A DNA stretch of 61,232 bases, taken from assembly GCA_029941315.1 (NCBI GenBank), contig JAPYQE010000007.1, positions 1 through 61,232 on the forward strand. Reading direction: 5' to 3'. The notes beneath the pieces are model-generated. The model did no database searches and was not told the origin of the DNA. It saw only the letters and a program-made list of their open reading frames with translations. The translations under genes were made by a program, and so were the position numbers. This DNA comes from Candidatus Latescibacterota bacterium (GTDB lineage Bacteria > Latescibacterota > UBA2968 > UBA8231). Below are positions 16,560 to 38,482 of this stretch, piece after piece. Positions within the stretch are counted from its first letter, which is position 1. Each line of letters begins with the position of its first letter.

Positions 16560-16560
16560 G

Positions 16561-16937
16561 TTATGCTTTGCTCGGGGCAGCGCCTAGGTATTTGCCGAGG
16601 CGCTGCTTTAGCTCGGCCACCCGGATCGGCTTGCGCTCATAGTCGATAACCTGTAATCCCCAAGCTCGCTGCACCGAGTCGAGGTCTGAGTAAGCTGTCA
16701 CCAAAATCACGGGGATATTGTGCGTCTGCTCGTGCAGTTGCCGCAACACCTCTATCCCACCCAGTGGCCGGACCGAGACCTTTTCCATCACCTCAACGCC
16801 ATTTTCCGCCTCAACGGCGACATACCCCAAACCTCGCACACCTTGCGTACCGATGCGCGCAGCATCTCCAAGTCGTCAACGACGAGGACCTGTTTGCCCG
16901 TCGACGCATCGCCCATCGCGTCTTTTATATTTCTCAT
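16561..16937 (-). pseudogene. single-domain response-regulator receiver, frameshifted and lacking the phospho-acceptor segment
   Basis: ATG at 16937 gives MRNIKDAMGDASTGKQVLVVDDLEMLRASVRKV.., which stops at 16788. The rest (RGLGYVAVEAENG..PVILVTAY..KPIRVAEL) is in another frame from 16839. Between MEKV and GGIEVLRQL the expected DLVLLDxxMP strand is absent. Confidence 0.65.
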
Positions 16938-17019
16938 TTTAGGCCAGTTCCTTGTTGTAGCGTACTTAAAAAAGCACGAAATACACTATTTGGAGATAAG
17001 AGTGAGAAAATTCTATACG

Positions 17020-18894
17020 TCAGTGCACCACATTGACCACGCCTGTGCGGCATTCGGTCTCATTGTCGGCGGCGACCTGCACCTGATAGAGATATAGCCC
17101 CGGCCCGACCAAAGCGCCATAGTCGTCGCGCCCATCCCAGACTCGGGCAAAGCGCCCGCTCCGATCCTCACCGGCATATCCGCGGCGCACCAAGCGCCCG
17201 CCAAGGTCGTAGATCTCAAAGAACACAGGGGCCGGCTGCGTCAGTTTGAGCAGGCTATAGGCGACCTCGAACACGTCGTTTACTCCGTCGCCATTGGGCG
17301 TAAGCACCTGCCTCGCCGGCACCACATCGTTAAGTAAAGGCGCGTTCGGCGCAGAAAGGCGCACTGTCAGCCCCGAACTCGGCAGCTGCAGGTCCACATC
17401 CGCTTCCTGCGCATATTGGAATACCGTATCGGACTCGGCAGCTTCCGCCGTCGAACGCCGCTCCGCCGTGCGCACTTCAAAACGAGTGCCATCGACAAAG
17501 ACCTTAGCGCGAAAAAATACCTGCAAAAAGCTACCATCGGCAATCACCCGCTTCCACAAATTCACCTCGAAACCGCGCCCAGATTCCACCCGCACGGTAT
17601 GCAACACCAGTTCGTCGTCAACTTTGACGCTGTCGACACCGGCGACCTCGGCCAAGGTCAGCACTTCGACGAAGCGGTAACCAGTGTCCGAACGACCTTC
17701 GAGGCGGCGGGTCTGCATGCTCATCGCAAATTCTGTCTCGGCGCCCGCGTCAACGACATTCGGACTGATCTCGGCGCGCATCTGCCCCGAAGACGGTGGC
17801 GAGAAATATTCAAAAACCAGCTGTTCGAGCTTGACGCCGGGTTGCAGAAAACGCACCTGGAACTGCAAATAGCTGTTCGGGCTCGGCGAGCGCACCACGT
17901 TGCCGTCAACCGTCTCCCAACCACTCCAGTTGGGATTCGATTTGACCGGCCCCTGTGCGATGCCCGGAAAATCGTCGGCGTATTCCCATACCGCCCGGTT
18001 GACCTGTAACTCCTGCGGTCCTTGCGTGATAAAATAAATCAACGGATCCTCGTCAGGGCCGGTACGAGTCTGCAGCACGATCGGTAACTCTTCGATCGGC
18101 AAACCGCCCTCGTGGCGGACCCGCCCCCATACCGGCGTGCCGGTCCCAGCCAAAAGCGGCACAGAGCGATAGAAACCAGGCGGCGCGGTACCGTCGGTAT
18201 AGAGTTCCAGTTCCGCCAATTCCCAAGGCGCGTCGCCTATGGGTTGGAAACGCACGTAGCGAGCCTGGCGTTCACCGCTCACCTGCAGCACCCCCGGCCA
18301 TTCGACCACCGCACGAATATTGGGTCGGGTGATACCGAAAAATAGATAGCGCCGAAAGGAAACGTCGTTGGTGGTCAACAACCGCATCAGCGTCACCACC
18401 GGGCGCAGGCGGTCGCCCAAACCCAAATCGAAAGTCTGCGGAAAAGAGCCCACGTGTTCGGCGTCGAGCCGCGGCGAGAGTCGTGTGCGTTCGATACTAT
18501 AGGCCCCGCCGAGATCGATATAGATCGACGTCTGACGATCTAGCCCAAAGTCATCCGGATTAAAGGCCGTCGACAGGTCGCCGTCGCCGATAAACTTCAC
18601 CGCGGTGACTTCGTCGAGGAACACCGGCGTAAGTATCGCCTCGCCGAAGGGGTTGAAGCTTGGCTGTTGAGCCGAAAGCAGAATACTTCCGCCGCGCCCC
18701 GTGACATTCGCCATCAAGTTCTCCCTCGGCTCCACCCGCCAGGTCCAGACCGAGTCAGGCGACGAAATAACAAAGGCCAGCGAGTCCTGCACATCGATCC
18801 AGGAGAGCGCGTCGCGGCCCACCTTGAGTTCCAGTTGCGCCGCGGCCGGTGCGGTGCATAGCGCAAAAGCCAATAGGCAGAGGTGAATCCGCAT
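17020..18894 (-). CDS. A3: secreted protein with a discoidin-like motif and a C-terminal TPNGDGVND (T9SS type-B / FlgD-Ig-like) domain; function unknown
   Basis: Signal peptide MRIHLCLLAFALCTAPAAAQ. GDGDLSTAFNP..SIYIDLGGAYSIERTRLSPR. C-terminus LTPNGDGVNDVFEV..IYDLGGRLV..WDGRDDYGALVGPGLYLY. Paralog of A1 and A2. Confidence 0.85.
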   Translation of the reverse strand: MRIHLCLLAFALCTAPAAAQLELKVGRDALSWIDVQDSLAFVISSPDSVWTWRVEPRENLMANVTGRGGSILLSAQQPSFNPFGEAILTPVFLDEVTAVKFIGDGDLSTAFNPDDFGLDRQTSIYIDLGGAYSIERTRLSPRLDAEHVGSFPQTFDLGLGDRLRPVVTLMRLLTTNDVSFRRYLFFGITRPNIRAVVEWPGVLQVSGERQARYVRFQPIGDAPWELAELELYTDGTAPPGFYRSVPLLAGTGTPVWGRVRHEGGLPIEELPIVLQTRTGPDEDPLIYFITQGPQELQVNRAVWEYADDFPGIAQGPVKSNPNWSGWETVDGNVVRSPSPNSYLQFQVRFLQPGVKLEQLVFEYFSPPSSGQMRAEISPNVVDAGAETEFAMSMQTRRLEGRSDTGYRFVEVLTLAEVAGVDSVKVDDELVLHTVRVESGRGFEVNLWKRVIADGSFLQVFFRAKVFVDGTRFEVRTAERRSTAEAAESDTVFQYAQEADVDLQLPSSGLTVRLSAPNAPLLNDVVPARQVLTPNGDGVNDVFEVAYSLLKLTQPAPVFFEIYDLGGRLVRRGYAGEDRSGRFARVWDGRDDYGALVGPGLYLYQVQVAADNETECRTGVVNVVH

Positions 18895-20438
18895 CAGAAG
18901 GTGACCCTCGGAATGTTGCCCTTCGCTATTTCTTCGATCAACGCGAGACTATCCTCGCTGAGCGGGTTATTGCGCAGATCGACCGAGAGCAGCTTTTCTA
19001 GCGTCATAAGCACCGAAATATCCGCCACTTCGTTGCCGCGCAAACGCAGACGCCGCAACTCGGGCAGAGCCGCTAAGGGCAAGAGGTCTACCACGAAATT
19101 ATTCTCGAAAAACAAGGACCCCAGCAAAGCCTTACCGGCGAGTGGGCCGATATCGACAACCAGGTTCGCATTGAAGTCCAGGTTTTCTAGATTGCGTAGA
19201 CCCTGCAAGGGCGCGATATCCACGACCGAGTTTTGCGCGAACTCCAACCATTCCAACGCGCGCAAGCTCGACAGGGGCGAGAGATCGACGACCCGATTAA
19301 ATGAGAGGTGCAACATCGTGAGTCGGCGCAAACTGCGCAGTGGCGAAAGGTCATCGATCCAGTTGCTTTCCAGATAGAGTTTCTCCAGCCGACCTAGGCC
19401 TCGCAACGGCGAGATATCCTGGATCACATTGGATTCGAGGCGCAATTCGATCAGGTTCGTCAGACCGGCCAGCGACGAGACATCCACTATATCGTTGTTG
19501 TTAAGATTGAGTTTCTGTAGACTCGTCAGGCTCGCCAAGGAGGTGATATTTTCAAGACTTGCCGTCGTCAGGTCCAATGTATGCAGCTTCTGCAGACTCG
19601 CTAGCGGCAAGAGGCTTTGCAACTCGCCTTCGCGGGTCGAGCCGTTGAAGCGCAGCACTTCCAGATTAACCAACTGCTCGATGCCGTCCAGCGATTTTAC
19701 GGAGCTGTTCAGGCTCATGCTGGTGATCCCGCGCAGGTCCAAGACCGTCAAATTTTCGGTCCGCTTACGCGCCACCGAGCGCACTGAGCGTTCCAACTGC
19801 GCGTCCTGAAAAGTGATTGTCGGCTGGAAGAAGGTCACCAGCAATACCCGCTCGCGCAGCGTCTCCACCTGGTCCAAATCGAGCGGGTTGCCCGAAAGCT
19901 CGACGCTTTGCAAGCGCCTGAGTCGCAATAGCACCGCGATATCGCGAACTTGGTTATCGTCAAGGTTGAGCAGACTCAACAGCGTCAACCGCGCCAGTGG
20001 CTGCAAATCCGCGACCTGATTGCCGTCGAGGTTGAGCGAGTTCAACAACAATAAGTCCGCCAGCGGCGCGATATCCTCGACCGCGTTATTCGACAGATCG
20101 AGCACCTGCAGCCGCCGCAAACCCTCAAGCGGCGCGATATCCCCCACCGCGTTATCCCCCAATAACAGCATTTCCAAGCCGCGCAGTTGTTCGACCCCCT
20201 GCACATCCACAATATCATAACCGCCCGCGTCAAGCTTCTGTAACCCGGCCAACGCCGCCGCCGTCAATGCCCCCTCAGGCTGCGCCAACGCCTGCCGAAC
20301 TGCCCGCTCAAAACCCGCATCGGCAAAAGTATCGTGGGCAAAGACCACTTCGTTATCTGTGCCGACCGACTGTAGCGGCGGGCGTTCGTCGCCGCAGCCC
20401 AAACACCACAGCAATAGCAAGCACAGCAAATATTTCAT
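18894..20438 (-). CDS. leucine-rich-repeat (internalin-like 22-residue LRR) lipoprotein
   Basis: Lipobox LLLWCLGCG. Two blocks of LxxLxxLxLxxNxIxDIxPL repeats (for example LQVLDLSNNAVEDIAPLADL and LEKLYLESNWIDDLSPLRSL). Stop/start overlaps on both sides. Confidence 0.88.
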   Translation of the reverse strand: MKYLLCLLLLWCLGCGDERPPLQSVGTDNEVVFAHDTFADAGFERAVRQALAQPEGALTAAALAGLQKLDAGGYDIVDVQGVEQLRGLEMLLLGDNAVGDIAPLEGLRRLQVLDLSNNAVEDIAPLADLLLLNSLNLDGNQVADLQPLARLTLLSLLNLDDNQVRDIAVLLRLRRLQSVELSGNPLDLDQVETLRERVLLVTFFQPTITFQDAQLERSVRSVARKRTENLTVLDLRGITSMSLNSSVKSLDGIEQLVNLEVLRFNGSTREGELQSLLPLASLQKLHTLDLTTASLENITSLASLTSLQKLNLNNNDIVDVSSLAGLTNLIELRLESNVIQDISPLRGLGRLEKLYLESNWIDDLSPLRSLRRLTMLHLSFNRVVDLSPLSSLRALEWLEFAQNSVVDIAPLQGLRNLENLDFNANLVVDIGPLAGKALLGSLFFENNFVVDLLPLAALPELRRLRLRGNEVADISVLMTLEKLLSVDLRNNPLSEDSLALIEEIAKGNIPRVTF

Positions 20439-23161
20439 TGCTCGACCCCTGCGTAGACCGTGAGGAACCCCCGCGTCCGAGTGCGCGTTCCTTCGACTTC
20501 CTGATACCGCCGCGTAATGTCAAAGCCCAATACCGTCGTTAGTTTATAACCCTGGTAATCGGATATATTGGTCAGCTGGGCGACCGTCGTCGTCTCCCAA
20601 AAGCTGTCCTCCCCACCCGGCGGCGGCGGGTCGCGCAATTGGCGAAAATCGTGGTATTCGACCCCGGCTTCGAGATAACTACTGAGCATCACGGGAAAGC
20701 GCGCAACAACCAACAGAATCTGGCTAAGTTCTTTGCGTTCGGGCTGATTGAGTAATACCGGCGCCTCGCGGCGGAACTCGCTCTTCCACGCCGGGCTCAA
20801 ACTCAGCTTGCCCAACTGCAAGCGATACTCGGCCTTGTTAATCATGCCGAGAAAAGACCCCTCCTCGCGCTGGCCACGCAATTGTAATTCAATAAGATCG
20901 TCGCGCTGGTGGTAGAGCTGCCACTTGAGCATGTTGTTGAACTTGAACCCGGGCCAGCGGTCGAAGTCGAAACCCAGCCATGTCGTATTGAGCAACGTGT
21001 TCTGCGCCGGCAAGATATCTGGGGTCGGCACCAATTCGCCCTGCGAGTTGGGCCGTTGCGTCCACTGCACCAGATGGTCGAAGATATCGTCCTCAACGCT
21101 GCGCAGATCCTGGAAGACACGCGCCCGGCCCCAACCGGTAAAATAATGATCCCCCGCCACCATTAGATAATCGGCGTGCGCGCTGCGGCTGTCCGCACGC
21201 TGATCCATCCTCTGACGACCCGCCGCGACCCGCAGATCGGGGTGCAAAAAGACGCCGGCGTAAAGATTGTATCCCTTGCGATCGCGCTTGTAAGGATAGT
21301 CGGCCTCTTCGTCGTTTTCGAAACGGTCGATCCATCCATTGTGGTTCTGGTCGATGCCATAGAGGAACTCGGGCCGGTCGGTGTAATAGCGCAGAAAGGG
21401 CTCTTCGTAATCGGGCACTCGGTTGGGGCTTGAGTTGGTATCGTTTTGGTTGAAGTCGGAGATCAGGTCGTTGTTCTCGTCCCAGCCGGGGAAAATCGCG
21501 CGGTCCCTTGGCGAGCCTTGCCGAGCCCAGTCGGGGAAGCGGTCCTGGTCGTCGTTGTCGTCGACGAACTCGTAAAAACGCAACGGGCTGCCGTAGTCGA
21601 CAATGCCGTTGCGGTCGACTACTTGGAAACCAGTCTGGTAGTTGGGATCAAAATCAAAAGCTTCCAGCAGCGTGAAATAGGGGTAGTCGGTCTTCGACAC
21701 GTTCAGCATCCAGGCCTGCGACTCCTCGCTGGCCACATGGTGCTTTTCCAGGTTGGGGTTGGGATACTGTTTGTATTGCTGGTTAATGTCGACTTCGAGA
21801 TAGGCGTTAAACCCTTCAAGATCGCTCACCTCCACCGTGAAACCAGCGATCTGGTTGGCGGTGGGCAAACCATAATCGAGCGCCAATACGCGCTGATTCG
21901 ACGAATCCTTGACATTGCCCGGCGCCCTGGCCACCGGCACCGGCACGACCCGTTCCTGAAAATCGGTCTGCCGATCCGAGGCCATCTCAACTAGGTAGTC
22001 GTTGGCCACTACCAACTCAACTTGCACCCGCTCTATTTCGCTGGGGTCCGGCCCCGTATAGGAACGGTCCTGGAAATCATAGCGCAGATGGATCTCCTCG
22101 CGACCGTCCGCTGCCAAAAAACCGCGGCGCTGAAAACCGCCTTCAACCAGCGGCCGAAAACCGATCTCCGAGCCGCGTATACGCTTGCCTTCTAGGTCCC
22201 AGATTACAATATCCTGCGCGAAGAGTGCACCGCCGGCCTCGCCGTCTTCAGGGCTATCGTCCTTGATCACGACTTCGACGAAGCTGACATTGGTCAGATT
22301 CTGTATGCCGGTGAGATTGCCCTTGAGGATATTGCCATTAAAGAGCTCGGTTTGCGTTTGCGCGTGGTGGGCGTTGAGATAGGTGCCGCCGACCTTGACG
22401 AAGTCGCCAACCTGCACTTCTAAACGACTACCCACCAAACTCGTATTATTCGTCTTCTCCGAAGTTCCTGTCGAAGAGCCCGTCTCATCGACAAGGCCGT
22501 TGAGCCTGGACAACAATACCGTCAGCGCGTATTTATCGGCGAGAAAATCCCACTGGATGCCGTTGAAACGCGGCTTGGAAAAAGTCATCGGCGTCAGCGT
22601 CGTACGGATCTGACTGCCGATGGTGATCGCGTAATGATACTGGCCTTTGTGGTCGGAAGTGATGACCAATTGGTTAAACCACCCGGCAAAGCGCCCGTTC
22701 TGGGCCAGCGTCGAACCGAAGGGCTGCGGATTCTGTTGCCGCCAGTCGAAGATCAGCCAGCCGCGCGTCAGGTAGTTGCCGTATACATCATATATATAGC
22801 TGCCTTCGAGCGAGGTCGAGACATAGCGCTGGTAGAAGTTGCGCGCATAATTAGAGTACTCCCATTGTTTCCACTGGTATTCGGAGTAGAGCTCCTGCGG
22901 GATATACCACTTGCGCACCGCCGGGTCCAACGCGTCGAAGAGCACGCCGGGGCCACGCGGCTCAAAAGATACCTTGCCACCGCGTTTGACGGTACCTAAC
23001 CGGGAGCCATAGTCCTGAGCAGCGAGGAGTCCGGGTTGCAGGAGCAGATATAGGTTTAGCAGTAATAGGGTCGTGAGGAATGAAATATTCCGGATTATCC
23101 AGCCTCTGCTCTGCTCAAGGCCATGTTGTTTTATTTCGCTCAAAGCATACCTAAATCTCAA
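20435..23161 (-). CDS. B2: 908-aa secreted protein of unrecognised family (outer-membrane beta-barrel-like by inference)
   Basis: Hydrophobic signal segment ISFLTTLLLLNLYLLLQPGLLAAQ. Clear paralog of B1 (for example PDYEEPFLRYYTDRPEFLYGIDQNHNGWIDRFENDEEADYPYKRD). Beta-strand-like alternating pattern in the C-terminal third. Confidence 0.85.
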   Translation of the reverse strand: MRFRYALSEIKQHGLEQSRGWIIRNISFLTTLLLLNLYLLLQPGLLAAQDYGSRLGTVKRGGKVSFEPRGPGVLFDALDPAVRKWYIPQELYSEYQWKQWEYSNYARNFYQRYVSTSLEGSYIYDVYGNYLTRGWLIFDWRQQNPQPFGSTLAQNGRFAGWFNQLVITSDHKGQYHYAITIGSQIRTTLTPMTFSKPRFNGIQWDFLADKYALTVLLSRLNGLVDETGSSTGTSEKTNNTSLVGSRLEVQVGDFVKVGGTYLNAHHAQTQTELFNGNILKGNLTGIQNLTNVSFVEVVIKDDSPEDGEAGGALFAQDIVIWDLEGKRIRGSEIGFRPLVEGGFQRRGFLAADGREEIHLRYDFQDRSYTGPDPSEIERVQVELVVANDYLVEMASDRQTDFQERVVPVPVARAPGNVKDSSNQRVLALDYGLPTANQIAGFTVEVSDLEGFNAYLEVDINQQYKQYPNPNLEKHHVASEESQAWMLNVSKTDYPYFTLLEAFDFDPNYQTGFQVVDRNGIVDYGSPLRFYEFVDDNDDQDRFPDWARQGSPRDRAIFPGWDENNDLISDFNQNDTNSSPNRVPDYEEPFLRYYTDRPEFLYGIDQNHNGWIDRFENDEEADYPYKRDRKGYNLYAGVFLHPDLRVAAGRQRMDQRADSRSAHADYLMVAGDHYFTGWGRARVFQDLRSVEDDIFDHLVQWTQRPNSQGELVPTPDILPAQNTLLNTTWLGFDFDRWPGFKFNNMLKWQLYHQRDDLIELQLRGQREEGSFLGMINKAEYRLQLGKLSLSPAWKSEFRREAPVLLNQPERKELSQILLVVARFPVMLSSYLEAGVEYHDFRQLRDPPPPGGEDSFWETTTVAQLTNISDYQGYKLTTVLGFDITRRYQEVEGTRTRTRGFLTVYAGVEQ

Positions 23162-23219
23162 ATCACCTATTTAATAAGTCACAAAAAAATTACAAACCAT
23201 TCTTCACCAGCTCTACCAG

Positions 23220-25115
23220 CTAGTACGCCACCGCCACCGTACCCGTATGCACCTCCTCAAACGCGTTCGCCTGCACCCGCAACACCCAAAAATAACTCCC
23301 CGGCAACACCATCTCGCCGCCCTCCAGCCGCCCATTCCACAACACCTCGACCGGCCCGATCCCCCGCTCCTCAGCCAATACCACGTGTACCAACCGGCCC
23401 GCCAGGTCGAAAAGCTCTAAACGCACCGGCGCCGACCGCGTCAGCTGTAATACGTTGAAGAACAGATCGAATGCGTCATTCACCCCATCGCCATTCGGCG
23501 TAAACACCGACGACTTGACCACAATCTCGCCGACCAGCTTGCCGATCTGCGGCTTGGGTATAGCTACCGATAAGTTCGACAACTCGGCAAAATCTCCGGG
23601 ACCGAAGTCGGTCGCCTCACCCGGTTCTAAACGCTGCGGTACCGCACCCGAACCACTGTGATAGGCCCGTCCCGAAAATGTCGTGCCGAAGCGGAAAATC
23701 GGCAGATCAAAAGTCAATTCAAGCACCGCCTCGTCGTGCCGGACTAGGGGGAAACTGATACCGAAGCCGTCGTCATGAATAAAGTCGACCGAGAAATCGA
23801 TCGGCTCCGCGTCGAGCACCACTTCCCGCACAGCCGAGATCGGCACGTTGGTGTCGATCTCAAGACGGTCGAAACCTCGAATCTCGCCCTCAGATCGCAG
23901 ACGCACCGCGTAGCGGAAAGTCGCCGCATCCTCTGCCTTGGCCAGCCGCGGAAAAACCTCGGCGCGCAGCGAATCGGCGATCGGCGGCTGCAAATAATCG
24001 AAGCGCAACTCGTCTACTTGCCGCGCCTCGAAGAGCCCACCTTCAAATTCGAAGCGAAACTGTATATAGCGGCGTGGCGTCGGCGCCCGTACCAACTCGT
24101 CCGAGTGCACTACGAACCACGGGCTCCAATAAATCGTATCATCGCGTACGCCGCCACGCTCGCCCGGCAACAGCGCATCGGTATAGCGCTCGCGCGAGAC
24201 TTCCACAATCTCGAAAAGCCCCTCACCGAGCGAAATCTTCTCCAAATAAACCAGCGGCGTCGGATCACTTCCGGTCCTGACCCTGACTTCCAATTGCGAA
24301 AAGTCCGGATGGCCGACGAGATCCTCGACCCAGTCGACAAAACCGATTGTGGCCCGGTCGCCGAGATCAATGGTATTAGATAAATACAGGCTCTCTTGCA
24401 GAAAACCAGTACCGTATACCTCGATCTCGTCGATCTCGAAGGGCACGTCGGCCAGCGACTTGATCTTGACGAAGCGCGCGTACTGGACCGGCACCTCCAC
24501 ATCGACCACCGGCTCCTCATTTTGTACATTGCGCTGGATCAATACATCGGGCTGACCGGATGCGAATTCGTTCAGCCACAGCTCGTAACCGCGCAAAAAA
24601 TCGTTATGAAAAGGGGTCGAGGGCATTTCTACTACCGTATTGCGCGGATAGAATAGCACTCTTTGCACACCTACTGGTACCATGAAATCGAGAATGACCC
24701 AAATACCGCGCGTCGCGACCCGCGGCTCGAAAACCGTCGGCTTGCGCTCGAAGGCCACCTCGTGGTCGCCGTTGACCGTGCCCTCGAGTTGCAATTCGTG
24801 GCCGCGCCCAGCATTCGGCGCCTTGATCGAACCAAAATCGAGGACCCGCGCAGCGATATTCTCACCTTCGTCAAAACGCAGCGGCCCGATCCACCCCGGC
24901 CGACCAGCAAAGTCAATGGTTACCCCCGGCGTATTCGTCAGCTCGACCTGGCCCAATGTCGAGTTGAGCACGATCTCCGGTTTGCCGCCGTCACCGCCGG
25001 CTTGCCAGGAAGAGGTGCCCCGGTCGCCGAGCACATAGGTCTCGGCCGGTTGCGCATACAACCCCGTCGCCCACAGCAATATCGCGGCCCACAGCCTATA
25101 TCTCATTGGCCTCAT
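23220..25115 (-). CDS. A2: secreted protein with a discoidin-like motif and a C-terminal TPNGDGVND domain; function unknown
   Basis: Start moved to ATG at 25115 (ATGA overlap with the B1 stop). Signal peptide MRPMRYRLWAAILLWATGLYAQ. VNGDHEVAFE..IWVILDFMVPVGVQRVLFYPR. C-terminus FTPNGDGVNDAFDL..LFDLAGRLV..WNGRLEGGEMVLPGSYFW. Confidence 0.85.
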   Translation of the reverse strand: MRPMRYRLWAAILLWATGLYAQPAETYVLGDRGTSSWQAGGDGGKPEIVLNSTLGQVELTNTPGVTIDFAGRPGWIGPLRFDEGENIAARVLDFGSIKAPNAGRGHELQLEGTVNGDHEVAFERKPTVFEPRVATRGIWVILDFMVPVGVQRVLFYPRNTVVEMPSTPFHNDFLRGYELWLNEFASGQPDVLIQRNVQNEEPVVDVEVPVQYARFVKIKSLADVPFEIDEIEVYGTGFLQESLYLSNTIDLGDRATIGFVDWVEDLVGHPDFSQLEVRVRTGSDPTPLVYLEKISLGEGLFEIVEVSRERYTDALLPGERGGVRDDTIYWSPWFVVHSDELVRAPTPRRYIQFRFEFEGGLFEARQVDELRFDYLQPPIADSLRAEVFPRLAKAEDAATFRYAVRLRSEGEIRGFDRLEIDTNVPISAVREVVLDAEPIDFSVDFIHDDGFGISFPLVRHDEAVLELTFDLPIFRFGTTFSGRAYHSGSGAVPQRLEPGEATDFGPGDFAELSNLSVAIPKPQIGKLVGEIVVKSSVFTPNGDGVNDAFDLFFNVLQLTRSAPVRLELFDLAGRLVHVVLAEERGIGPVEVLWNGRLEGGEMVLPGSYFWVLRVQANAFEEVHTGTVAVAY

Positions 25116-27856
25116 TGGCTCAATCCCGCGTAAAGCGTCATAAAAACCAAACTCGACTCCTGTGCAGGGCGCCCTTCGAAACGTCGCTGTTGGAACTGCA
25201 CGCCGGTCGTCGTCACCAACTGATACCCCTGGTAGGCCGTGCGGTTGAGCAATTGCGCGACAGCCGTCCAATTAAAAAAATCGGCATCTACCTCTTCCCG
25301 CATCCCGTCTAAGAGCCAGAGCTTGCCCGCCTCGACGCCCACCTGCAGTTCGGTATTGAAAAGCTGACGGCCATAACGCGGATAATAGCTGACACCCACC
25401 GATTCGGCGAAGAGCGGTTGCGTCCACATTAAAAAGAAAATCTCTTCCACGCTGGTAGACGCCGGCAGGCGCGTGCTGAAAGGCCGTTCCTTGCGAAATT
25501 CGCTTTTGAAGCGCGGCTCCAATACGCCCAACCCCACCGGAATGCTCCACTCCGCTTTATTAATCACACCGAGAAAACCGCTCAATTTGCGCCCTTCCCG
25601 CAACGACACCTCATCCTCCGGATCCTGTTGTTCTACGATATCCCATTTGACCCGGTGCAATAACCGCACCTGCGCCCCCAACTGTTGGTCCAGATCAATA
25701 TACAGCGCGTTTTTCCAGGCGTTCAGCCCCGGCAGAAAATCGACCCGATCGAGCATGCGGCCCGGCCCGCCGATGGGCTGAAACCACTGGCGTAGGTCGT
25801 CGGGAATATTGTCGCGGACCCGACCGCCAAAATCGAAAATCCTCAACCGGCTGCCGCCCTTAAAACGATGGCTCCAAGCCCCCAAACCATACCAGAACCG
25901 GGTCTCGCCGTCGCCGACCACCAATCGCATATTCTGGCGCCCTACGCTCAACTCGAGGTCGGGCAATACCTCGACCTTGAGATAGGCGTTATAACCGCGG
26001 TGATCGCGTTTGTAGGGATAGTCCGGCTCAAGGTCGTTTTCGAAACGGTCTATAATGTCATTGTGGTTCATATCGAGGCCGAAGAGGAACTCGGGCCGAT
26101 CCGAGCGATAGCGCAGGAAGGGCTCTTCGTAATCGGGGAAGACATTCTGGTTCTGGTTATTGTCGTTGATAAAGTCGCCGTTTTCGTCCAAGCCCGGCCA
26201 GGCGACCTCGCGCTGACTCGAAAGGATGCTCGCCGATGACACCGTCGCCGACTCGGTAATCCCGCCCCAGCGTACGAAAAATGGCCGTTCCCATTCGGTC
26301 AACCCGTTGAGGTCGTCGTCGTCATCGACAAATTCGTAGACCTGGGGTATCTGGCTCTTAAATTTGATCCGGCCCGTACGGTCGGTGAGCCAGTAGCGGG
26401 TGCTGTAGTCGTCCTCGATTGAAAAACCCTCGCCGAAGAACATCCAGGGACCGAAGCGATAGGAACCATTGAGATAACCGGCGTGCGCGTTTTCGGCGAT
26501 CTCGTGGTGCACTGAAATATTGGGGTTGGGATAGCGCGAATAGCGACGATTAAGCACCAATTCGCCCATTAGCGAAAGCCCTTTCCAATCGCTCAAATTC
26601 CAATCAACGCCGTACAGTTCGCTGGCCGTCGGCAAACCATAATCAAGTCGTAGAACCTGCGTGTTGCTATTGTCCTGCACATTGCCCGCGGCCCGCGCGA
26701 CCGGCAAAAAAACAACCTCGGCATTACGCCGTTGGCCGTCGGTCTGCAAATCCGTCGCTATTTCAACCCTGTAATCATTGGCCAGCGACAGCTCGACCTG
26801 CACGCTCTGCAAATCTTCCGTCTGCACATCCTCAAAGTCGAGGCTGCCTAGATCAAATTCCAATAGGATACTTTCTTCGTCACGAGCAAATAGCCGCCCG
26901 CCTTGCAATACCCCACCCTCGCGCAAGGGCAAAAAGTCGATGTCGCGCCCCCGCAATTGGCGGCCACTGGTATCCGTCATCACGATATCAAAACCCGCCA
27001 GCGCCGCCCCCACCCCACCACGGCCCGGCGAATCGTCCCTGATCCGGACCCACAACTTGTCCAATGGCTGGTTCTCCAACGAAGTCAAAATGCCGCGCAG
27101 CGGGTTACCTTCGCCGAACTCGACTTGGGTTAGCACATTGTGCGCGTTGACATAGGTCAGCCCGAAGCTTGCTCCCGGCCCCGCCTGAAATTCGAGGTGG
27201 CTACCCATGACCGTTGTCGAATTGGTTTGCGCCTCGGCGTCGGGGTTACTCGGTCGCGACAAGAGCAGACTGGCCTGATACTGCTCGGCCGCGTAATCCA
27301 GGCGCACGCCATTGAAGCGCGGCTTATTGAAGGTCAGCGGGGTAAAACGGGTGAAGATCTCGTCGCCGATCATCAGCCGGTACGAGGCCCCGCCGCGCTG
27401 GTCCGAAGCGATGACCAGACGGTTAAAAAAATCGCGGTAGGCCGGACGCTGATTCGCCATCAGGTCCATCGAAGAAAGACCACCGCCGCGCTTGTCGATA
27501 AAGCTGCCCCTGGAGCCGACCTGCTCCTGGCTCCAGTTGTAAACCAACCAGCCCCGGCCCAAAGACTTGCCAAAGTTGTCAAAGCTCTCGTCGCCTTCGA
27601 GGATCAGACTGATATAACGCCGATAGGAGTCGCGGGCGAAATTGCTGCCGCGCGCGTACCAGGGCGACATATAGGTCTCAGGCTGATAGCGCGGCTCGTA
27701 CCATTTGTGTATCGCCGGCGAGACATAGGACATCTCGAAGCTCTCGGTATGCGCACCGCGCTGCGCGACGCCCCAGTGCAACGGATCAGATACTTGCGCG
27801 CCGGCCAGAGCCACCCACAACAGGCATAAACTTATGATCGTCGTATGGCGCATCAA
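25112..27856 (-). CDS. B1: 914-aa secreted protein of unrecognised family (outer-membrane beta-barrel-like by inference)
   Basis: Signal peptide MMRHTTIISLCLLWVALAGAQ. Paralog of B2 along its full length. Asp/Asn-rich block GLDENGDFINDNNQNQN..DMNHNDIIDRFENDLEPDYPYKRD. ATGA overlaps at both ends. Confidence 0.85.
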   Translation of the reverse strand: MMRHTTIISLCLLWVALAGAQVSDPLHWGVAQRGAHTESFEMSYVSPAIHKWYEPRYQPETYMSPWYARGSNFARDSYRRYISLILEGDESFDNFGKSLGRGWLVYNWSQEQVGSRGSFIDKRGGGLSSMDLMANQRPAYRDFFNRLVIASDQRGGASYRLMIGDEIFTRFTPLTFNKPRFNGVRLDYAAEQYQASLLLSRPSNPDAEAQTNSTTVMGSHLEFQAGPGASFGLTYVNAHNVLTQVEFGEGNPLRGILTSLENQPLDKLWVRIRDDSPGRGGVGAALAGFDIVMTDTSGRQLRGRDIDFLPLREGGVLQGGRLFARDEESILLEFDLGSLDFEDVQTEDLQSVQVELSLANDYRVEIATDLQTDGQRRNAEVVFLPVARAAGNVQDNSNTQVLRLDYGLPTASELYGVDWNLSDWKGLSLMGELVLNRRYSRYPNPNISVHHEIAENAHAGYLNGSYRFGPWMFFGEGFSIEDDYSTRYWLTDRTGRIKFKSQIPQVYEFVDDDDDLNGLTEWERPFFVRWGGITESATVSSASILSSQREVAWPGLDENGDFINDNNQNQNVFPDYEEPFLRYRSDRPEFLFGLDMNHNDIIDRFENDLEPDYPYKRDHRGYNAYLKVEVLPDLELSVGRQNMRLVVGDGETRFWYGLGAWSHRFKGGSRLRIFDFGGRVRDNIPDDLRQWFQPIGGPGRMLDRVDFLPGLNAWKNALYIDLDQQLGAQVRLLHRVKWDIVEQQDPEDEVSLREGRKLSGFLGVINKAEWSIPVGLGVLEPRFKSEFRKERPFSTRLPASTSVEEIFFLMWTQPLFAESVGVSYYPRYGRQLFNTELQVGVEAGKLWLLDGMREEVDADFFNWTAVAQLLNRTAYQGYQLVTTTGVQFQQRRFEGRPAQESSLVFMTLYAGLSQ

Positions 27857-30378
27857 TAGACCACGTGCACCAGTCTGGAAGCGTAGACTCCAGCCACATC
27901 ACTATCGGCAGCGAAACCAACGCGCGCCATGTAAATGCCCGGCGGCACAATCTCGCCGACCTCGTCGCGCCCGTCCCATGCGACTCGACGCTCGCCACTA
28001 GGGTGCGCGGCATCGATCGACAAATCGCGCAACTGCCGCCCCGCCAGATCGTAAATTTCCACCCGCAGTTGCTTCTCGCCTTCAAGGTGAAAAATCGACA
28101 AGGTTATGTCCGTAATATCATTGACGCCATCGCCATTGGGTGTAAACGCGCGCGGCACCACCTGCACATTTTCCAATAGCCGCGTCCGCTCCAGGTCCGA
28201 CACTACTACCAGCGACTGACTCGATACCAGGGCGCTGGCATCACCATCGCTGACCACCTGCACTCGTCCCGGCCTGCTCGCCCGTTCCAACTCGGCGGTA
28301 AAGGTCGTGCTCTGTAAAAATACCTTGGTGCGGAATTTGATCTCGTAGATCGGATTGCCACGCAGCACCGGTGCGGGAAAAAACAGTTCGACCTCGCCCT
28401 CCGCCCCCGGTTCCAATAGTAATTCGCCCGGCCACAAATCCTGGCCAGAGCCGATGCGCAACGCCGTATCCCCACCCGATCGCACCGAGAGCAACTCAAT
28501 CGGCGCCGCCGAAGAAGAGCGCAGGCGCAAACGGTCGAAGCCCGGATTGCCCGCCGCGAATTCGGGCTGCAAATAAAGCGTAAAGTCCTGCTCAACCCCC
28601 GGTTCGATCTGCCATACCGGCCAAATCTCGCCGACCACCTTGTCGACCAAAGGCGGCTCGAAACGCAAGCGTAGATCGCGGATCTTGGCCGCCCTGAGCG
28701 GCTCGCGCGACAAAAGCCGCACCTGTACTTGCACAAAGGCGCGTGGACTCGGCGATTTGAAGGCGAGGCCCGAGGCCTCGTAGACCTCACTCCAACTGCT
28801 CCAATGCGGGCCAGCAACTTTTTCGATCACGACAGCCGGACGCCTATTTTCTGGGAGCAGGTCCCACAGGCTCTTGGCGATCTCACGACCGGTCACCGCA
28901 AAATAATGCGGTATCTCGATAATCTCTTCGCCGCTGCGGGTGCGAACCTCGACCTGGGTGCCTGGCGGCTCTTCCCCCTCCCACTCCACCACGGAAAACA
29001 ACCGCGGTCTATCCAGCGGGATAAAGGGCGAGGTCATTTCCACCTCGGAGACAAAACCCTCGCCATAGGCCTGGATCTCGCTGATAAAACCGTCGACCGA
29101 TTCGTTGGGATTAAATTCGAGGTGGCGCATTTCGATAAAGCGCACTTCCTGCAGCGGAAAGGTCTCTTCGAGATGCTGGTGGCCGCTGAGGTTGCGTTTT
29201 TCGTCGAAACTGTTCCAGATCCGTTCCCCATTAGGACTCAACGCCCCATTCGAAACCCGCAACTGATAAGCCAGCGGCGGCATCTCATTGGCCGGCGCGA
29301 GCAGTTTGATGCGGTCGAGCCAGTATTTGGCGCCCAAGTCGATCTTCAGTTGCCGCTCGTCGGTCACCGGATCGTAGATCGGCACGTCAAAGCTCGAAGA
29401 ATAGAGTCCGTCGGAAAAAATCTTGCGGAAGAGAAATTCAAAACCGCCTTCGTCGGCTCCGCGTTCGACCTCGCTCTGGGTCAGCTTCACCACATTCTGG
29501 CCAAGAGCAAAAACCTCGACCTCGGCCAAGCGGGGACGCTCGTGACGATAATAGCGCACCGGTCCGTGCTCGTCCTCCGGCAAGTCGAAATAATCACGCT
29601 CGGAAATAAGGATCTCGCGCCCGCCCACCGTCACACGAAAATAATCGACGGCGCCCCGGTCGTCTTCGGCCAAGATCTCATAGGTCTCGGCATTCACTTC
29701 CTGCGCTCTGGGCCCGTCGGTATCGAGCACGTCGAGCCGCAAAAACTGAATAATCTCGCCTTCGATGCCGTCGGTGACCTGGCGGTTGGGTTTGATGTCG
29801 AAAATATATTCGCGTTGGTTTTTATTGGGTTTGGTCTCCAAACCAATGCGAAAGAAGCGCCGGCGCTGATCGCGCCCCTGCCCGAAACGCAGCCCATCCG
29901 AGGCCATCAAACGAAACTTCAAAAAGGGATCGCCCTGTCCCTCATCGACAAAGCGCAGCACTACTCTGCGGGCGATTACCGCCCGCCCCAAATCAATCTC
30001 CAGAAACCACTGGTCCACCGGCGAGCTACGCAAAGGCTCCCAATAGGTGCTGGGATTGCGATCCAAAATAGCCGCCGCCTGGTCCCGGCTGGTGCCTACC
30101 TCACTAATACCGCCCTGCAGAGTGTCTTGCGACACGAAGGGGTTTACGTAGATAAAGTCGACCGCGTTTTGCGCCACCTCGATATCGCTGCGCAGAAAAC
30201 GCGGTTCGACGGTGCCGTCTTCGCGTACGATCTGCACCCCGGTGGGCGCATCCCAGGCCTGCCAGTGCACCGGTTCGTTGATGCGCACTTGGTTAAAAAG
30301 TAGGCGGTAGCCTTCGCTTTCCTGGGCGAAAAGCGGATGGGCCAGAAAGAACAGTAGAATAGGTAGTATTATGCGCAC
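27853..30378 (-). CDS. A1: 841-aa secreted protein with discoidin-like motifs and a C-terminal TPNGDGVND domain; function unknown
   Basis: GTG start. Signal peptide MRIILPILLFFLAHPLFAQ. LDRNPSTYWEP..WFLEIDLGRAVIARRVVLRF and KIDLGAKYWLDRIKLLAP. C-terminus FTPNGDGVNDITDI..IYDLAGRQL..WDGRDEVGEIVPPGIYM. Confidence 0.85.
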   Translation of the reverse strand: MRIILPILLFFLAHPLFAQESEGYRLLFNQVRINEPVHWQAWDAPTGVQIVREDGTVEPRFLRSDIEVAQNAVDFIYVNPFVSQDTLQGGISEVGTSRDQAAAILDRNPSTYWEPLRSSPVDQWFLEIDLGRAVIARRVVLRFVDEGQGDPFLKFRLMASDGLRFGQGRDQRRRFFRIGLETKPNKNQREYIFDIKPNRQVTDGIEGEIIQFLRLDVLDTDGPRAQEVNAETYEILAEDDRGAVDYFRVTVGGREILISERDYFDLPEDEHGPVRYYRHERPRLAEVEVFALGQNVVKLTQSEVERGADEGGFEFLFRKIFSDGLYSSSFDVPIYDPVTDERQLKIDLGAKYWLDRIKLLAPANEMPPLAYQLRVSNGALSPNGERIWNSFDEKRNLSGHQHLEETFPLQEVRFIEMRHLEFNPNESVDGFISEIQAYGEGFVSEVEMTSPFIPLDRPRLFSVVEWEGEEPPGTQVEVRTRSGEEIIEIPHYFAVTGREIAKSLWDLLPENRRPAVVIEKVAGPHWSSWSEVYEASGLAFKSPSPRAFVQVQVRLLSREPLRAAKIRDLRLRFEPPLVDKVVGEIWPVWQIEPGVEQDFTLYLQPEFAAGNPGFDRLRLRSSSAAPIELLSVRSGGDTALRIGSGQDLWPGELLLEPGAEGEVELFFPAPVLRGNPIYEIKFRTKVFLQSTTFTAELERASRPGRVQVVSDGDASALVSSQSLVVVSDLERTRLLENVQVVPRAFTPNGDGVNDITDITLSIFHLEGEKQLRVEIYDLAGRQLRDLSIDAAHPSGERRVAWDGRDEVGEIVPPGIYMARVGFAADSDVAGVYASRLVHVVY

Positions 30379-30674
30379 TGGACTAGCAAGATTTTTACCG
30401 AGAAATGGGGGTATGCAATTGAGTTAGTGTACGCACTGTAAGTTACGAAATTTCCAGCTAAAAGTGACCCATGACACGAGCGCGAATCTCGTGCTAACCC
30501 GTCACAAGATATCACCGGAAGGTAGCGGCTGCTTGATAAAGACGTATCAATTAGGTAGACCGCTATAAAAACGACGATTGCTAGCATAGGGACAAGGGTG
30601 GATGGTGCCGATTCACATTGAATAGTTTACAATACATGCTGCCGCAAAGCGCATAATAAGATATCGGACATCCG

Positions 30675-31883
30675 TCATCTGGTCGTTTCTTCCCGCAAGA
30701 TATCGAGATAGCGCTCACCATAACCCTCGTATTCTAGTCCCTCGCTATACGCTCCGTCGCGACCATCGAGGCTCGTTGGCGCCGCCTCGACCACCGGTTC
30801 GATCTGGGTGTCCTCGTGCCACTCGTTCCACGAAGTAACCAGCAGCATATGTCCGGTAGCCGGTTCCGTGTAGGACGCCGCCTGCTGCAACATAGCGCGA
30901 AAGAGGCTGCCGGGTTCACTCGTCTTGGTCAGCTTGCGAGACACCGCCGGGTGCCCATCGCGCACACCTTTGTCGTTGAAACCCGGTGTGGCGGCGGGAA
31001 CAAACGCCGCACCCGCTGCATTCGCCAACTTCTGCCATTTGCTCTGCGCCGCATAATAAGCATCAACTTTCTGCTGCCCGGCGTAGCCCTGCGCGCCCAT
31101 ACTACCATATACATCGTAATTCGTCACGCCGTCGAGCAGTCCGAGGGCGGACGAATTTGTCGGTTGTCCGAATACCTGGTCGCCGACGATATAAATGTCG
31201 TGGCCCGCATCCGTTGCCGCATTGCGCATTCGCGCTACCACCTCGTCGAGCACACCATTGCGCGACAGCACGCGCGTTAGATAGACAAATAACACGGGGC
31301 GACCGTCGATGCGCAGATAGTTTGCATGATCGAAATAATTGGCCGCCATATGGGCGATATCCGCGGAGACATTGGACATATCCTCGAACTCGGGAATACG
31401 CCCGGAGGTCTCGTAGAATAACGCCACTTGCATATCCCCCAGTTCCTCATGCGGCAAAATGCGCTGCAATAACGTAGTATCCTCGCGGCGACCCGGCCCC
31501 CACCAACTAGCGACCCACAGCGACACATTGGCGGCGCGACTCCACTGCAAATGCTGGGCGATGACCTCTGGGGCGCGGTCGTCATACTCGCCAAGGCTGG
31601 GTGGCTGCGGCGGTTGCAAATGCTCGCGCATATAGCGACCACCATGAAAATCACCTGCATACCACGGGTAATAATAAACGCCGACCGTATAGGCCGAGTC
31701 CAAAGCTGGGTCTTCGGAATCGATCATCTCCTGCCCTTTTGTAGAATTTGTCGTCCCTTGCCCTGTGCAGGCACTCGCCAAGGCAAGAAAAAAGCTACAG
31801 GCGCAAACGAGCAACAAGGCCCGTTGAGATGGGTCAGATATGCTATACTGAGACGTTTTTGCAAGCTTTGCCGAGTTGTTCAA
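30675..31883 (-). CDS. GH99-like glycoside hydrolase lipoprotein
   Basis: Lipobox FLALASAC. GVYYYPWY..LGEYDDRAPEVIAQHLQWSRAANVSLWVASWWGPG matches the GH99-type N-terminal pattern as I recall it. Not verified by search. Confidence 0.5.
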   Translation of the reverse strand: MNNSAKLAKTSQYSISDPSQRALLLVCACSFFLALASACTGQGTTNSTKGQEMIDSEDPALDSAYTVGVYYYPWYAGDFHGGRYMREHLQPPQPPSLGEYDDRAPEVIAQHLQWSRAANVSLWVASWWGPGRREDTTLLQRILPHEELGDMQVALFYETSGRIPEFEDMSNVSADIAHMAANYFDHANYLRIDGRPVLFVYLTRVLSRNGVLDEVVARMRNAATDAGHDIYIVGDQVFGQPTNSSALGLLDGVTNYDVYGSMGAQGYAGQQKVDAYYAAQSKWQKLANAAGAAFVPAATPGFNDKGVRDGHPAVSRKLTKTSEPGSLFRAMLQQAASYTEPATGHMLLVTSWNEWHEDTQIEPVVEAAPTSLDGRDGAYSEGLEYEGYGERYLDILREETTR

Positions 31884-31992
31884 TTTAGTCCTTTTAGTCC
31901 TTTATGGCGCTGTAGTAGCACTCTTTTTTTATGTTGAGACCAGTCTGGCCCAAAATGCAACACCTCATTTACCCTCTCAATAAAACTCGCTT

Positions 31993-33423: not shown

Positions 33424-33496
33424 ATATAGGGCCTCGTTATCATCGATGAAATAAATTGCGTGGGGTCCAATAGGGAAGGAATGTTCTCCGTTCGAC

Positions 33497-34504
33497 CTAT
33501 GGATAAACCTTCAATGCCTCGTCGTTGAAGTCAATGATCTCATCTTGCAAACCGTCGACCACCTTGTTGCACCAATCCGCATCGCTGAGCAACGGGCGAC
33601 CGATGGCGACTAGGTCGAATTCGCCGCGGTCAAAACGCCGCATCAATTCTTGTTTGCTTTGCGGTCCGTCGCCAAAGAACTCACCGGTCACCAGCCCCAC
33701 ATTGCCCACGGTGATCGTCGGCAGATCGGCGATCTTTTTGCTCCAGCCGGCTAGATTGAGATCGGAACCATCAAACTCGGGCAGCCAGAAGCGCCGCGTG
33801 CTGGCGTGAAGAAAGTCGATGCCGGCGTCTTTTAAGGCGAGCAGCGTCTTTTCCAGTTCTTGTGGTGTCGCGAACTGCTTGGCCTCGAAGTCGCGCACGG
33901 TCCACTGAGAAAAGCGAATGCCCAGCGGGTAAACAGGGCCGACTTGGCGGCGAATTTCGCGCACGAGATCGCAGACGAACGCGAGTTGCCCGGCGCGCAA
34001 GAAACTGTCGATCAAATAGCCGTGCGCGCCGTGCAGTTCGATGCCATCAAAGCCGATTTTCTGCGCGGATACCGCACCGGCAACAAAGGCATTGAATAGC
34101 TCCTGCAGGGCTTTACCCTCAGCTTGTACGACAACCTCCCGACCTTCTTCGACCACCGACCGGGCCGCGATCCCGGGTCGGTTTATCGGGCCTTGGTGCC
34201 ATAGCTGCACAAAAGTCTTGCTACCGGTTGGCTCAATTTTGGCGAGCACGGCCTGCCAGGCTGCTGCGGTATCTTCGGCAATGCGGGGGATCTGGTCCGA
34301 GTTGGCCGCCAAGCGGTGTTCGACCACCGTGCCCTCCGTTATAAGTAGGCCAACACCTCCGGCGGCCCGGCGGTGATAGTATTCCGCGACAATGCTCGTC
34401 GGCACGCCGCCAGGCGATTGTTTACGCGTCATCGGTGCCATGACAAAGCGATTGCGCAAGTCTAGGTCTTTGATTTTGTAGGGTTGAGATAGGGCTGTTA
34501 TCAT
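33497..34504 (-). CDS. NADH:flavin oxidoreductase (Old Yellow Enzyme family)
   Basis: Start moved to ATG at 34504. RFVMAPMTR and IELHGAHGYLIDSFL. Confidence 0.85.
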   Translation of the reverse strand: MITALSQPYKIKDLDLRNRFVMAPMTRKQSPGGVPTSIVAEYYHRRAAGGVGLLITEGTVVEHRLAANSDQIPRIAEDTAAAWQAVLAKIEPTGSKTFVQLWHQGPINRPGIAARSVVEEGREVVVQAEGKALQELFNAFVAGAVSAQKIGFDGIELHGAHGYLIDSFLRAGQLAFVCDLVREIRRQVGPVYPLGIRFSQWTVRDFEAKQFATPQELEKTLLALKDAGIDFLHASTRRFWLPEFDGSDLNLAGWSKKIADLPTITVGNVGLVTGEFFGDGPQSKQELMRRFDRGEFDLVAIGRPLLSDADWCNKVVDGLQDEIIDFNDEALKVYP

Positions 34505-38475: not shown

Positions 38476-38482
38476 AGTGATA

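Follow-up and report, generated by a model that had tools for sequence, protein, structure and literature searches.

We analysed a stretch of 61,232 nucleotides (nt) of a Candidatus Latescibacterota bacterium (contig JAPYQE010000007.1), hereafter called the window, in which positions 17020-30378 carry six co-directional open reading frames (ORFs) on the minus strand, joined by overlaps of 1-4 nt and separated only once, by a gap of 58 nt. In the direction of transcription they encode A1 (27853-30378, 841 amino acids (aa), GTG start), B1 (25112-27856, 914 aa), A2 (23220-25115, 631 aa when counted from ATG), B2 (20435-23161, 908 aa, TTG start), a leucine-rich repeat (LRR) lipoprotein (18894-20438, 514 aa) and A3 (17020-18894, 624 aa). 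A1 is a long A-type protein, A2 and A3 are short ones, and B1 and B2 are two predicted outer-membrane beta-barrels. A preliminary description, made from the sequence alone, had listed the same six ORFs and a single gap; the coordinates were confirmed, and so was the gap, which lies between A2 and B2 at 23162-23219 on the minus strand and is AT-rich when read directly.

Direct reading of the junctions gave ATGA overlaps between B1 and A2 and between B2 and the LRR gene, and TGATG between the LRR gene and A3, in agreement with the preliminary description. The junction of A1 and B1 at 27853-27856, which had been given as ATGA as well, is instead TTGA with a TTG start, or TGATG if B1 begins at the ATG at 27853. 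For A2, the longest ORF (683 aa) starts from a TTG at 25271, 52 codons upstream of the ATG, and the 631-aa form is favoured because it provides the signal peptide and because its length fits that of homologues of 625-640 aa. The start of B2 is uncertain, since the TTG at 23161 adds about 20 residues before the signal peptide; orthologues are 864-882 aa long.

Judged by eye, A1, B1, A2, B2 and A3 carry hydrophobic N-terminal leaders that end at an Ala/Gln (A/Q) cleavage site (30319-30378, 27794-27856, 25050-25115, approximately 23020-23161 and 18835-18894, respectively), and a Cys lipobox (LGC) is conserved in the LRR protein, so that the signal peptide or lipobox noted previously for every product was seen again. 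Both family alignments show at least 90% conservation of the Gln that becomes N-terminal after cleavage, and homologues from Ignavibacteria and Zixibacteria share it. The corresponding "Q-rule" (pyroglutamate N-termini) has been reported as specific to Bacteroidetes (PMC5837995).

According to BLASTP, B1 and B2 are 38% identical over 909 aa, and the A proteins are related to one another at 31% (A2 and A3, E = 1e-42), 26% (A1 and A2, E = 6e-25) and 28% identity (A1 and A3, E = 2e-27), with the similarity spanning approximately the last 420 residues. On these sequence comparisons, the paralogy proposed earlier for A1, A2 and A3 and for B1 and B2 is far beyond chance. A scan of 16400-31000 for sigma-70 promoters and intrinsic terminators returned counts equal to those of shuffled sequence and was uninformative, and a tRNA scan across the window found none. 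An ORF of 524 aa antisense to A1 (28729-30303, plus strand) was set aside as a high-GC artefact; other long antisense ORFs in the window are likewise unsupported and are typical of sequence with 58% GC.

Domains of the A proteins and of the LRR lipoprotein

In Pfam, A1 matched F5_F8_type_C at aa 97-161 with 29.9 bits (cut-off 28.2) and F5_F8_type_C_2 at aa 340-413, and its tail (aa 741-822) matched CHU_C and FlgD_ig with 25.9 and 25.4 bits, the former just under the cut-off of 27. The protein therefore reads as an FA/Q signal peptide followed by two discoidin-like domains, immunoglobulin (Ig)-like domains and a C-terminal sorting domain. CHU_C scored 35.3 bits in A2 and 33.8 bits in A3, where FlgD_ig reached 32.8 bits, all above the cut-off of 27; a discoidin or F5/8 type C match in A3 reaches E = 0.06 at best. 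The C-terminal domain (CTD) lies on the minus strand at 27856-28158 in A1 (aa 741-841, with the motif FTPNGDGVND), at 23223-23510 in A2 (aa 536-631, where conservation within the A2 family is highest) and at 17023-17313 in A3 (aa 528-624, from Pfam), and the motifs FTPNGDGxND and WDGR...PG.Y are readable in the A-protein sequences.

Structural comparison gave a similar picture for A2. Its CTD matched the Ig-like domain of FlgD in the PDB (3osv_A, E = 2.7e-7), and the AlphaFold2 model (pLDDT 88) is predicted to be all-beta, with a CBM32-like head, spacers resembling Ig or fibronectin type III (Fn3) domains and a PorU/FlgD-like tail. Foldseek matches of the model were galactose oxidase, a CBM32 domain (4zz5_A, TMt 0.74, root-mean-square deviation 3.2) and the C-terminal region of PorU, so that membership of the F5/8 type C/CBM32 group is indicated by the Pfam score for A1 and by the fold match for A2. 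Two A subfamilies can be distinguished in Latescibacterota, a short one of approximately 660 aa that includes A2 and A3 and a long one, "b", of approximately 855 aa (n = 72) that includes A1; all 421 homologues of A2 are annotated as hypothetical.

The LRR protein scored 159.9 bits with LRR_4 (Pfam cut-off 27) and has internalin-like repeats. Identity as an internalin was rejected, as its 209.8 bits did not reach the equivalog cut-offs of 1050-1700, and the product is an ordinary LRR_4 lipoprotein, whose gene occupies the equivalent position in 14 loci.

Taken together, the A proteins are discoidin/CBM32-like and Ig-like proteins with a CTD (CHU_C/FlgD_ig) like type B of the secretion system of type IX (T9SS), and the leaders described above provide A1-A3 with the N-terminal Sec signal of T9SS cargo. 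The earlier view that the operon contains no recognisable functional family does not hold for A1-A3 and the LRR_4 protein and stands for B1 and B2. Searches for PorP/SprF, PorV or PorQ gave no match in the operon proteins with Pfam and NCBIfam, and none in the 29 largest neighbouring ORFs of the window with Pfam. Elsewhere in the window, a GH10 xylanase-like protein (36367-38622, minus strand) matched the type A sorting domain TIGR04183 with 24.1 bits (cut-off 23) and FlgD_ig with 36.6 bits. The organism thus appears to have at least one type A CTD cargo, which is an indirect sign that it uses a type IX-like sorting pathway.

The B proteins

Neither B1 nor B2 matched any Pfam or NCBIfam family at E ≤ 1, and the B family profile found nothing at E ≤ 1 among PDB sequences, the entries for SprA included. 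The AlphaFold2 model of B1 (pLDDT 74, pTM 0.74, with barrel strands at pLDDT 85-95) has about 26-28 long antiparallel strands, a number taken from the DSSP string only. Foldseek returned 71 PDB matches at E ≤ 1e-3, and nearly all of the 50 best are outer-membrane barrels; the model and these matches place B1 among closed antiparallel barrels. The best matches, at probability 1.0 and E = 1e-9 to 1e-6, were SlpA, MtrB, FimD and LptD, with template-modelling (TM) scores of approximately 0.15-0.3 and identities of 6-8%, which is a generic barrel likeness. B1 shares the fold class and the strand number (24-30) with SlpA (8ae1), MtrB (6r2q_B), LptD and FimD, but the TM-scores with these proteins are only 0.18-0.29 at 6-8% identity, and B lacks the SLH, haem-partner, LptE and usher plug features.

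Described families of large or neighbouring barrels were examined in turn and rejected for B. PorP/SprF and PorV/PorQ were set aside because PF11751, TIGR03519 and NF033709 gave no match at E ≤ 1 and because B has about 910 aa against the roughly 300-400 aa of these FadL-like barrels; a 14+14-strand duplication of a PorV-like barrel received an hhalign probability of 0.3%, indicating no relation. SusC and other TonB-dependent transporters, which combine a Plug domain and a 22-strand barrel with a TonB box, failed for lack of a PF07715, PF00593 or CarboxypepD_reg match, with Foldseek TM-scores of about 0.19 for BtuB and BauA. Omp85 proteins (BamA/TamA), LptD and ushers gave no sequence match in Pfam, NCBIfam or the PDB and Foldseek TM-scores of 0.16-0.22, and SprA/Sov, with its 36-strand barrel, gave no match among PDB sequences or in NCBIfam, with SprA outside the top 50 Foldseek matches. 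The preliminary description had named such matches as what would speak against its view that B is novel, and this view is borne out by the profile searches and by the structural comparison. As modelled, B belongs to the outer-membrane barrels but to none of the families described so far.

Three regions of B1 are distinctive. A beta-sandwich is inserted at aa 267-368 (26753-27058, minus strand; from DSSP, pLDDT 88-95), and counting strands of the model from the C-terminus places it on the extracellular side by inference. The most invariant stretch of the family, according to the alignment columns, is an acidic EF-hand-like region at aa 505-618 (EFVDDDDD ... DMNHNDIIDRFENDLEPDYPYKRD; 26003-26344, minus strand), which has low pLDDT and whose acidic loops presumably bind Ca2+; its motifs doubled as family-wide search patterns. 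The N-terminal segment at aa ~40-90 is strongly conserved as well and was left unplaced by AlphaFold2. The inserted beta-sandwich and the invariant acidic region are also features of B2. All 310 homologues of B1 are annotated as hypothetical, and an exhaustive profile search yielded 910 B clusters at 50% identity.

The structural matches raise the question of whether B is an usher or an exporter, either polymerising the Ig-like A proteins into a fibre, with a peptidyl-prolyl isomerase (PPIase) lipoprotein as chaperone, or exporting an exopolysaccharide together with the large tetratricopeptide repeat (TPR) protein described below. Foldseek does list the FimD and PapC ushers and the PgaA and PelB barrels, a PPIase lipoprotein adjoins many clusters, and a TPR protein with a barrel is the layout of synthase-dependent exporters (compare AlgK/AlgE and BcsC). 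However, the TM-scores are 0.14-0.22, no usher, pilin, glycosyltransferase or synthase family was found in any cluster, and the tail of A is a type IX-like CTD and not a donor-strand feature. We consider a role of this kind very improbable.

Conserved A-B pairing and the core operon

To describe the distribution of the family, B loci were collected by a combination of pattern search and tblastn using one genome per species. A first profile yielded 170 loci, and another that was more distant yielded 405. A and B genes were labelled with hidden Markov models on the ORFs of the retrieved loci. Of 160 loci, 149 have a same-strand A gene no more than 5 kb away from B, and 9 of the other 11 are explained by contig ends, by gene-calling artefacts or by an insertion. 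The adjacency of A and B, which the preliminary description had proposed to look for in related genomes, is therefore strongly conserved. At least 17 independent metagenome-assembled genomes (MAGs) repeat the order A1-B1-A2-B2-LRR-A3 or A3-A1-B1-A2-B2. The earlier idea of a translationally coupled operon for exported proteins is supported, and the gene set is conserved and looks co-transcribed. When a, b and B denote short A, long A and barrel genes, the contents abaBB, bBaBa and aBab occur in 11, 8 and 6 loci, respectively. Complete Latescibacterota clusters usually hold two short A genes, one long A gene and one or two B genes, and this recurrent content points to a heteromeric complex.

Satellite copies of A and B are numerous in Latescibacterota. 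The best genomic match is a Latescibacterota chromosome (80% identity, locus L005), and this 7.3-Mb chromosome, OZ244561.1, has at least 13 B and at least 21 A genes over seven loci. Where the source is named, B1 and A2 homologues belong to MAGs of Latescibacterota or to MAGs with the label Gemmatimonadetes, and the MAGs that contain the B family as a whole bear the labels Latescibacterota, Ignavibacteriota, Kryptoniota, KSB1/Zhuqueibacterota, Zixibacteria and Marinimicrobia; the B profiles of the Latescibacterota and Ignavibacteria types align with an hhalign probability of 100% (E = 7.5e-94). Typical Latescibacterota A/B loci also occur in MAGs labelled Gemmatimonadetes or Gemmatimonadota, Planctomycetota, Chloroflexota, Chitinophagaceae, Cytophagia and Lentisphaeria (for example L006, L010, L011, L013, L016, L017, L019, L020 and L180). 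These odd labels are probably taxonomic misassignments, and phylum counts based on record titles need care. No isolate-derived locus was present among more than 230 retrieved loci, a pattern-based scan being unable to prove absence.

In the MAGs of the family that are labelled with phyla other than Latescibacterota, B belongs to a nearly invariant core cluster that consists of an A-like CTD protein, a barrel of about 310 aa, B, a TPR protein of about 1,045 aa, homologues of MotA/TolQ/ExbB and of ExbD/TolR, and two DUF4159 membrane proteins. The small barrel matched NF033709 (E = 7e-22) and TIGR03519, the PorP family (E = 1.4e-12), both under the cut-offs, and its best PDB match is PorV of F. 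johnsoniae (6h3i_F); from these profile matches, it is assigned to the PorV/PorQ/PorP group. BamG and BamH of the Bacteroidota BAM complex were also considered, as a pair of adjacent barrel and surface protein, and rejected, BamG being a 14-stranded FadL-like barrel and BamH a lipoprotein; NF053685 (BamG) gave the small barrel only 22.9 bits. In one Ignavibacteria locus (L102:13503-15979), the genes after the core cluster encode a GHL10 protein, whose T9SS CTD is clearly of type A (44.4 bits), and a DUF5683 protein.

Latescibacterota have the same core in the form of a highly conserved operon, found in 45 loci (L165-L209; for example L188:7249-15790), which encodes a CBM9-like protein (C1), a lipoprotein of about 250 aa (C5), the PorV-like barrel, a TPR protein of 1,081 aa, TolQ (217 aa), TolR (135 aa) and a DUF4159 protein (453 aa). 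Across most of the retrieved genomes, the identity of the TPR protein is 73-75%; this protein has promiscuous TPR matches that include PorW/SprE (E = 1e-32, below the cut-off). In profile searches against PDB sequences, C1 matched CBM9 weakly (E = 0.003), DUF4159 matched a single uncharacterised structure, and C5 matched nothing. C1 is secreted and ends in SWGRIK, and an A-like gene of about 884 aa is usually found upstream of the core operon in divergent orientation.

The physical connection of the two gene sets varies between genomes. A cluster of the window type runs straight into the core operon on the same strand in L016/L165, L203 and L180, and in L017, L018 and L028 the sequence retrieved after B2 covers only the first core genes (C1, C5 or the PorV-like barrel); the PorV/Q/P-like barrel is at most three genes downstream of B2 in L016/L165, L203, L180 and L018. 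In the closest relative of the window, OZ244561.1, the A/B cluster (L005) lies megabases from the core operon (L188). The preliminary description had overlooked that, in related genomes, the A/B genes are linked to those of a PorV-like barrel, of a giant TPR protein and of TolQ/TolR.

The core could also be read as part of a dedicated type IX-like secretion system, in which B would be the translocon, the PorV-like barrel a shuttle, the TPR protein a scaffold like PorW/SprE, TolQ/TolR a motor replacing PorL/PorM, and A the cargo. The gene order A, PorV-like barrel, B, TPR protein, TolQ and TolR agrees with this explanation, as do the PorW/SprE match of the TPR protein, PorV as the best PDB match of the small barrel, and the modelled barrel of B, which would be wide enough for folded domains. 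Nevertheless, B has no sequence similarity to SprA and SprA is not among its top Foldseek matches, a translocon is not usually present, as B is, in several paralogous copies per cluster, and the satellite clusters, including that of the window, are without shuttle and motor. SprA has moreover been reported in the phyla of the Fibrobacterota-Chlorobiota-Bacteroidota (FCB) group except Chlorobiota, with Latescibacterota outside the sampling (PMC12611786), and a second translocon would therefore be unneeded. Secretion through B thus seems unlikely to us. A literature search on Latescibacteria with T9SS or type IX found no papers, and one on DUF4159 found only the Pfam paper.

Upstream of the operon, the window holds a block of genes for a GH99 glycoside hydrolase (GH), a sulfatase, two old yellow enzymes (OYE), GH10 and GH92 (30675-40723), which lies between the operon and a flank of MoeA and acetyl-CoA synthetase. 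The preliminary description took such neighbours as a hint of glycan capture or adhesion. In the orthologous loci L003, L004 and L007, however, fumarase takes the place of the glycoside hydrolase block, while the outer flanks are those of the window, with acetyl-CoA synthetase, MoeA and OYE upstream and a phosphodiesterase downstream. In addition, none of the top 25 families among 122 flanking proteins from 84 loci is a glycoside hydrolase or sulfatase; those that recur are TPR (16), FG-GAP/ASPIC (7) and ABC permeases (5). The block is therefore a variable island beside a conserved operon, and a glycan system resembling a polysaccharide utilization locus is ruled out as a conserved property.

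Three sulfatases (31993-33423, 52039-53448 and 58810-60189) are scattered across the window, which also encodes GH92, an M81 peptidase and a glycogen-debranching enzyme; these represent general polymer-degrading content and not a link specific to the locus. A TPR protein of 697 aa is encoded at 9539-11632 on the plus strand, about 5 kb downstream of A3; in other loci, TPR proteins are the unlabelled neighbours found most often beside A/B clusters. Near the satellite clusters L021-L084, the recurrent genes encode a PPIase (Rotamase_2) lipoprotein of about 567 aa, a multi-pass DUF6785/DUF6784 membrane protein, FG-GAP/ASPIC proteins and parts of ABC sugar transporters.

These neighbourhoods also bear on energised uptake analogous to SusC/SusD, in which B would serve as an import channel driven by TolQ/TolR through the TPR and DUF4159 proteins, A and the LRR protein would capture the ligand, and the paralogous A/B clusters would be specificity variants. 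As in SusC/SusD, a large barrel and surface partners of a carbohydrate-binding type (CBM32-like or discoidin heads, and the CBM9-like C1) are encoded side by side in expanded paralogous loci such as those of OZ244561.1, and a link to an inner-membrane proton channel is presumed; B is linked to homologues of MotA/TolQ/ExbB and ExbD/TolR in MAGs labelled with at least six phyla. The surroundings of satellite clusters repeatedly include ABC permeases, solute-binding proteins and DUF6785 membrane proteins, and the conserved segment of B at aa ~40-90 could be a box for motor contact. On the other hand, B shows no Plug, TonB_dep_Rec or TonB-box signature at E ≤ 1, its Foldseek likeness to TonB-dependent transporters is generic (TM-score about 0.19), its partners are CTD proteins and not SusD lipoproteins, carbohydrate-active enzymes are not conserved neighbours, and none of the core operon products was recognised as a TonB homologue. 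We regard uptake of this type as improbable.

A possible role at the cell surface

Pairs of a CTD protein and an adjacent cognate PorP/SprF-like barrel are known from T9SS, namely SprB-SprF and PG1035/PorA-PorP (PMC9143113, PMC12618676). The operon resembles these type B cargo systems in that the cargo carries a Sec signal and a CHU_C/TIGR04131-like domain with FTPNGDGxND, in that the cargo gene adjoins a barrel gene with many paralogous pairs per genome, and in the presence of a PorP/PorV/PorQ-like barrel in the core cluster of related genomes. It differs in that the adjacent barrel B has about 900 aa and approximately 26-28 strands instead of about 300 aa and shows no TIGR03519 or PF11751 match, in the ratio of three A to two B genes, and in the linkage to TolQ/TolR instead of PorL/PorM. 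In PorU-PorV and PorZ-PorQ, the surface proteins keep their CTD and sit on FadL-like barrels, and the A2 model matches the C-terminal region of PorU; A has neither the peptidase of PorU nor the beta-propeller of PorZ, however, and B is not FadL-like.

Further systems with a comparable layout are the Agl-Glt gliding and Nfs spore-coat machines of Myxococcus, in which a motor of the TolQ/TolR type is combined with large TPR proteins, with several outer-membrane barrels and with an adhesin at the surface, and in which paralogous outer-membrane modules share one motor. No homology of outer-membrane components was detected, although none was tested for; the phyla differ, and Glt has no type IX-style CTD or PorV-like barrel. 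To our knowledge, the gene set of CTD protein, PorV-like and giant barrels, giant TPR protein, TolQ/TolR and DUF4159 matches no known system, and our searches brought none to light.

By analogy with the T9SS pairs, we consider it quite possible, though short of probable, that the operon encodes the outer-membrane part of a conserved but as yet undescribed envelope system of the FCB group, linked to a motor, in which CTD surface proteins are docked on giant barrels. After export by Sec, B would be inserted into the outer membrane, and the A proteins would cross it by means of their CTD, most likely through the type IX pathway of the organism. A would then be retained at the surface by non-covalent docking of its CTD on the cognate barrel, following the precedent of SprB-SprF and PG1035-PorP for type B CTDs, and of PorU-PorV and PorZ-PorQ (PMC9143113, PMC12618676). 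The expected outcome would be a heteromeric complex of A1-B1, A2-B2, A3 and the LRR lipoprotein, whose discoidin and LRR heads may bind an external ligand, either a glycan or a surface, with calcium possibly stabilising the acidic loops of B. The module would probably work together with the separately encoded core operon (the CBM9-like protein, the small lipoprotein, the PorV/Q/P-like barrel, the TPR protein of about 1,080 aa, TolQ, TolR and DUF4159), through which it could be coupled to the proton-motive force, and adhesion, motility and uptake are candidate outputs.

Several observations weigh against docking on B as part of a motor-linked system. The ratio of three A to one or two B genes does not fit strict pairwise docking, and the PorV/Q/P-like barrel of the core could be the true anchor of the CTD, which would leave B without an assigned role. 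The scores of the three A proteins with TIGR04131, the NCBIfam model for type B CTDs, lie at 16.9-23.6 bits (22.9, 23.6 and 16.9), all under the cut-off of 35. No PorV-like, core TPR or TolQ/TolR gene was found among the window ORFs scanned, so that the linkage rests on other genomes, and every locus is derived from a MAG.

A wider proposal is that A and B form the outer-membrane end of a machine that would span the envelope, would be driven by the proton-motive force and would be distinct from those described so far; its parts would be a TolQ/TolR-type stator, a TPR scaffold of about 1,050 aa, DUF4159 membrane proteins, the PorV-like barrel, B and a CTD surface protein. Much of the non-Bacteroidota FCB superphylum would have inherited such a machine from its ancestor, the type IX and gliding apparatus being its sister or analogue, and in Latescibacterota it would have multiplied into a dozen or more interchangeable surface modules. 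We hold this proposal to be possible but doubtful. The outer-membrane machine imagined in the preliminary description gains support insofar as AlphaFold2/Foldseek and the profile searches indicate an outer-membrane location for B and show no characterised protein related to it, and novelty is to be claimed for B and the whole system and not for the A and LRR proteins.

The B family is large and unnamed, has no Pfam model or structure, and contains some of the largest outer-membrane barrels predicted; type IX-style CTD proteins are its almost constant partners, and a link to a motor of the Tol/Exb type recurs. Uncultured FCB bacteria are important polymer degraders in sediments and oceans, and hundreds of "hypothetical" genes per set of Latescibacterota genomes could be annotated as one system. 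If the link to the motor is functional, it would show how uncultured members of the group, such as Latescibacterota, Ignavibacteriota and Marinimicrobia, build and power their cell surface, and would bear on the origin of type IX secretion and of the gliding apparatus.

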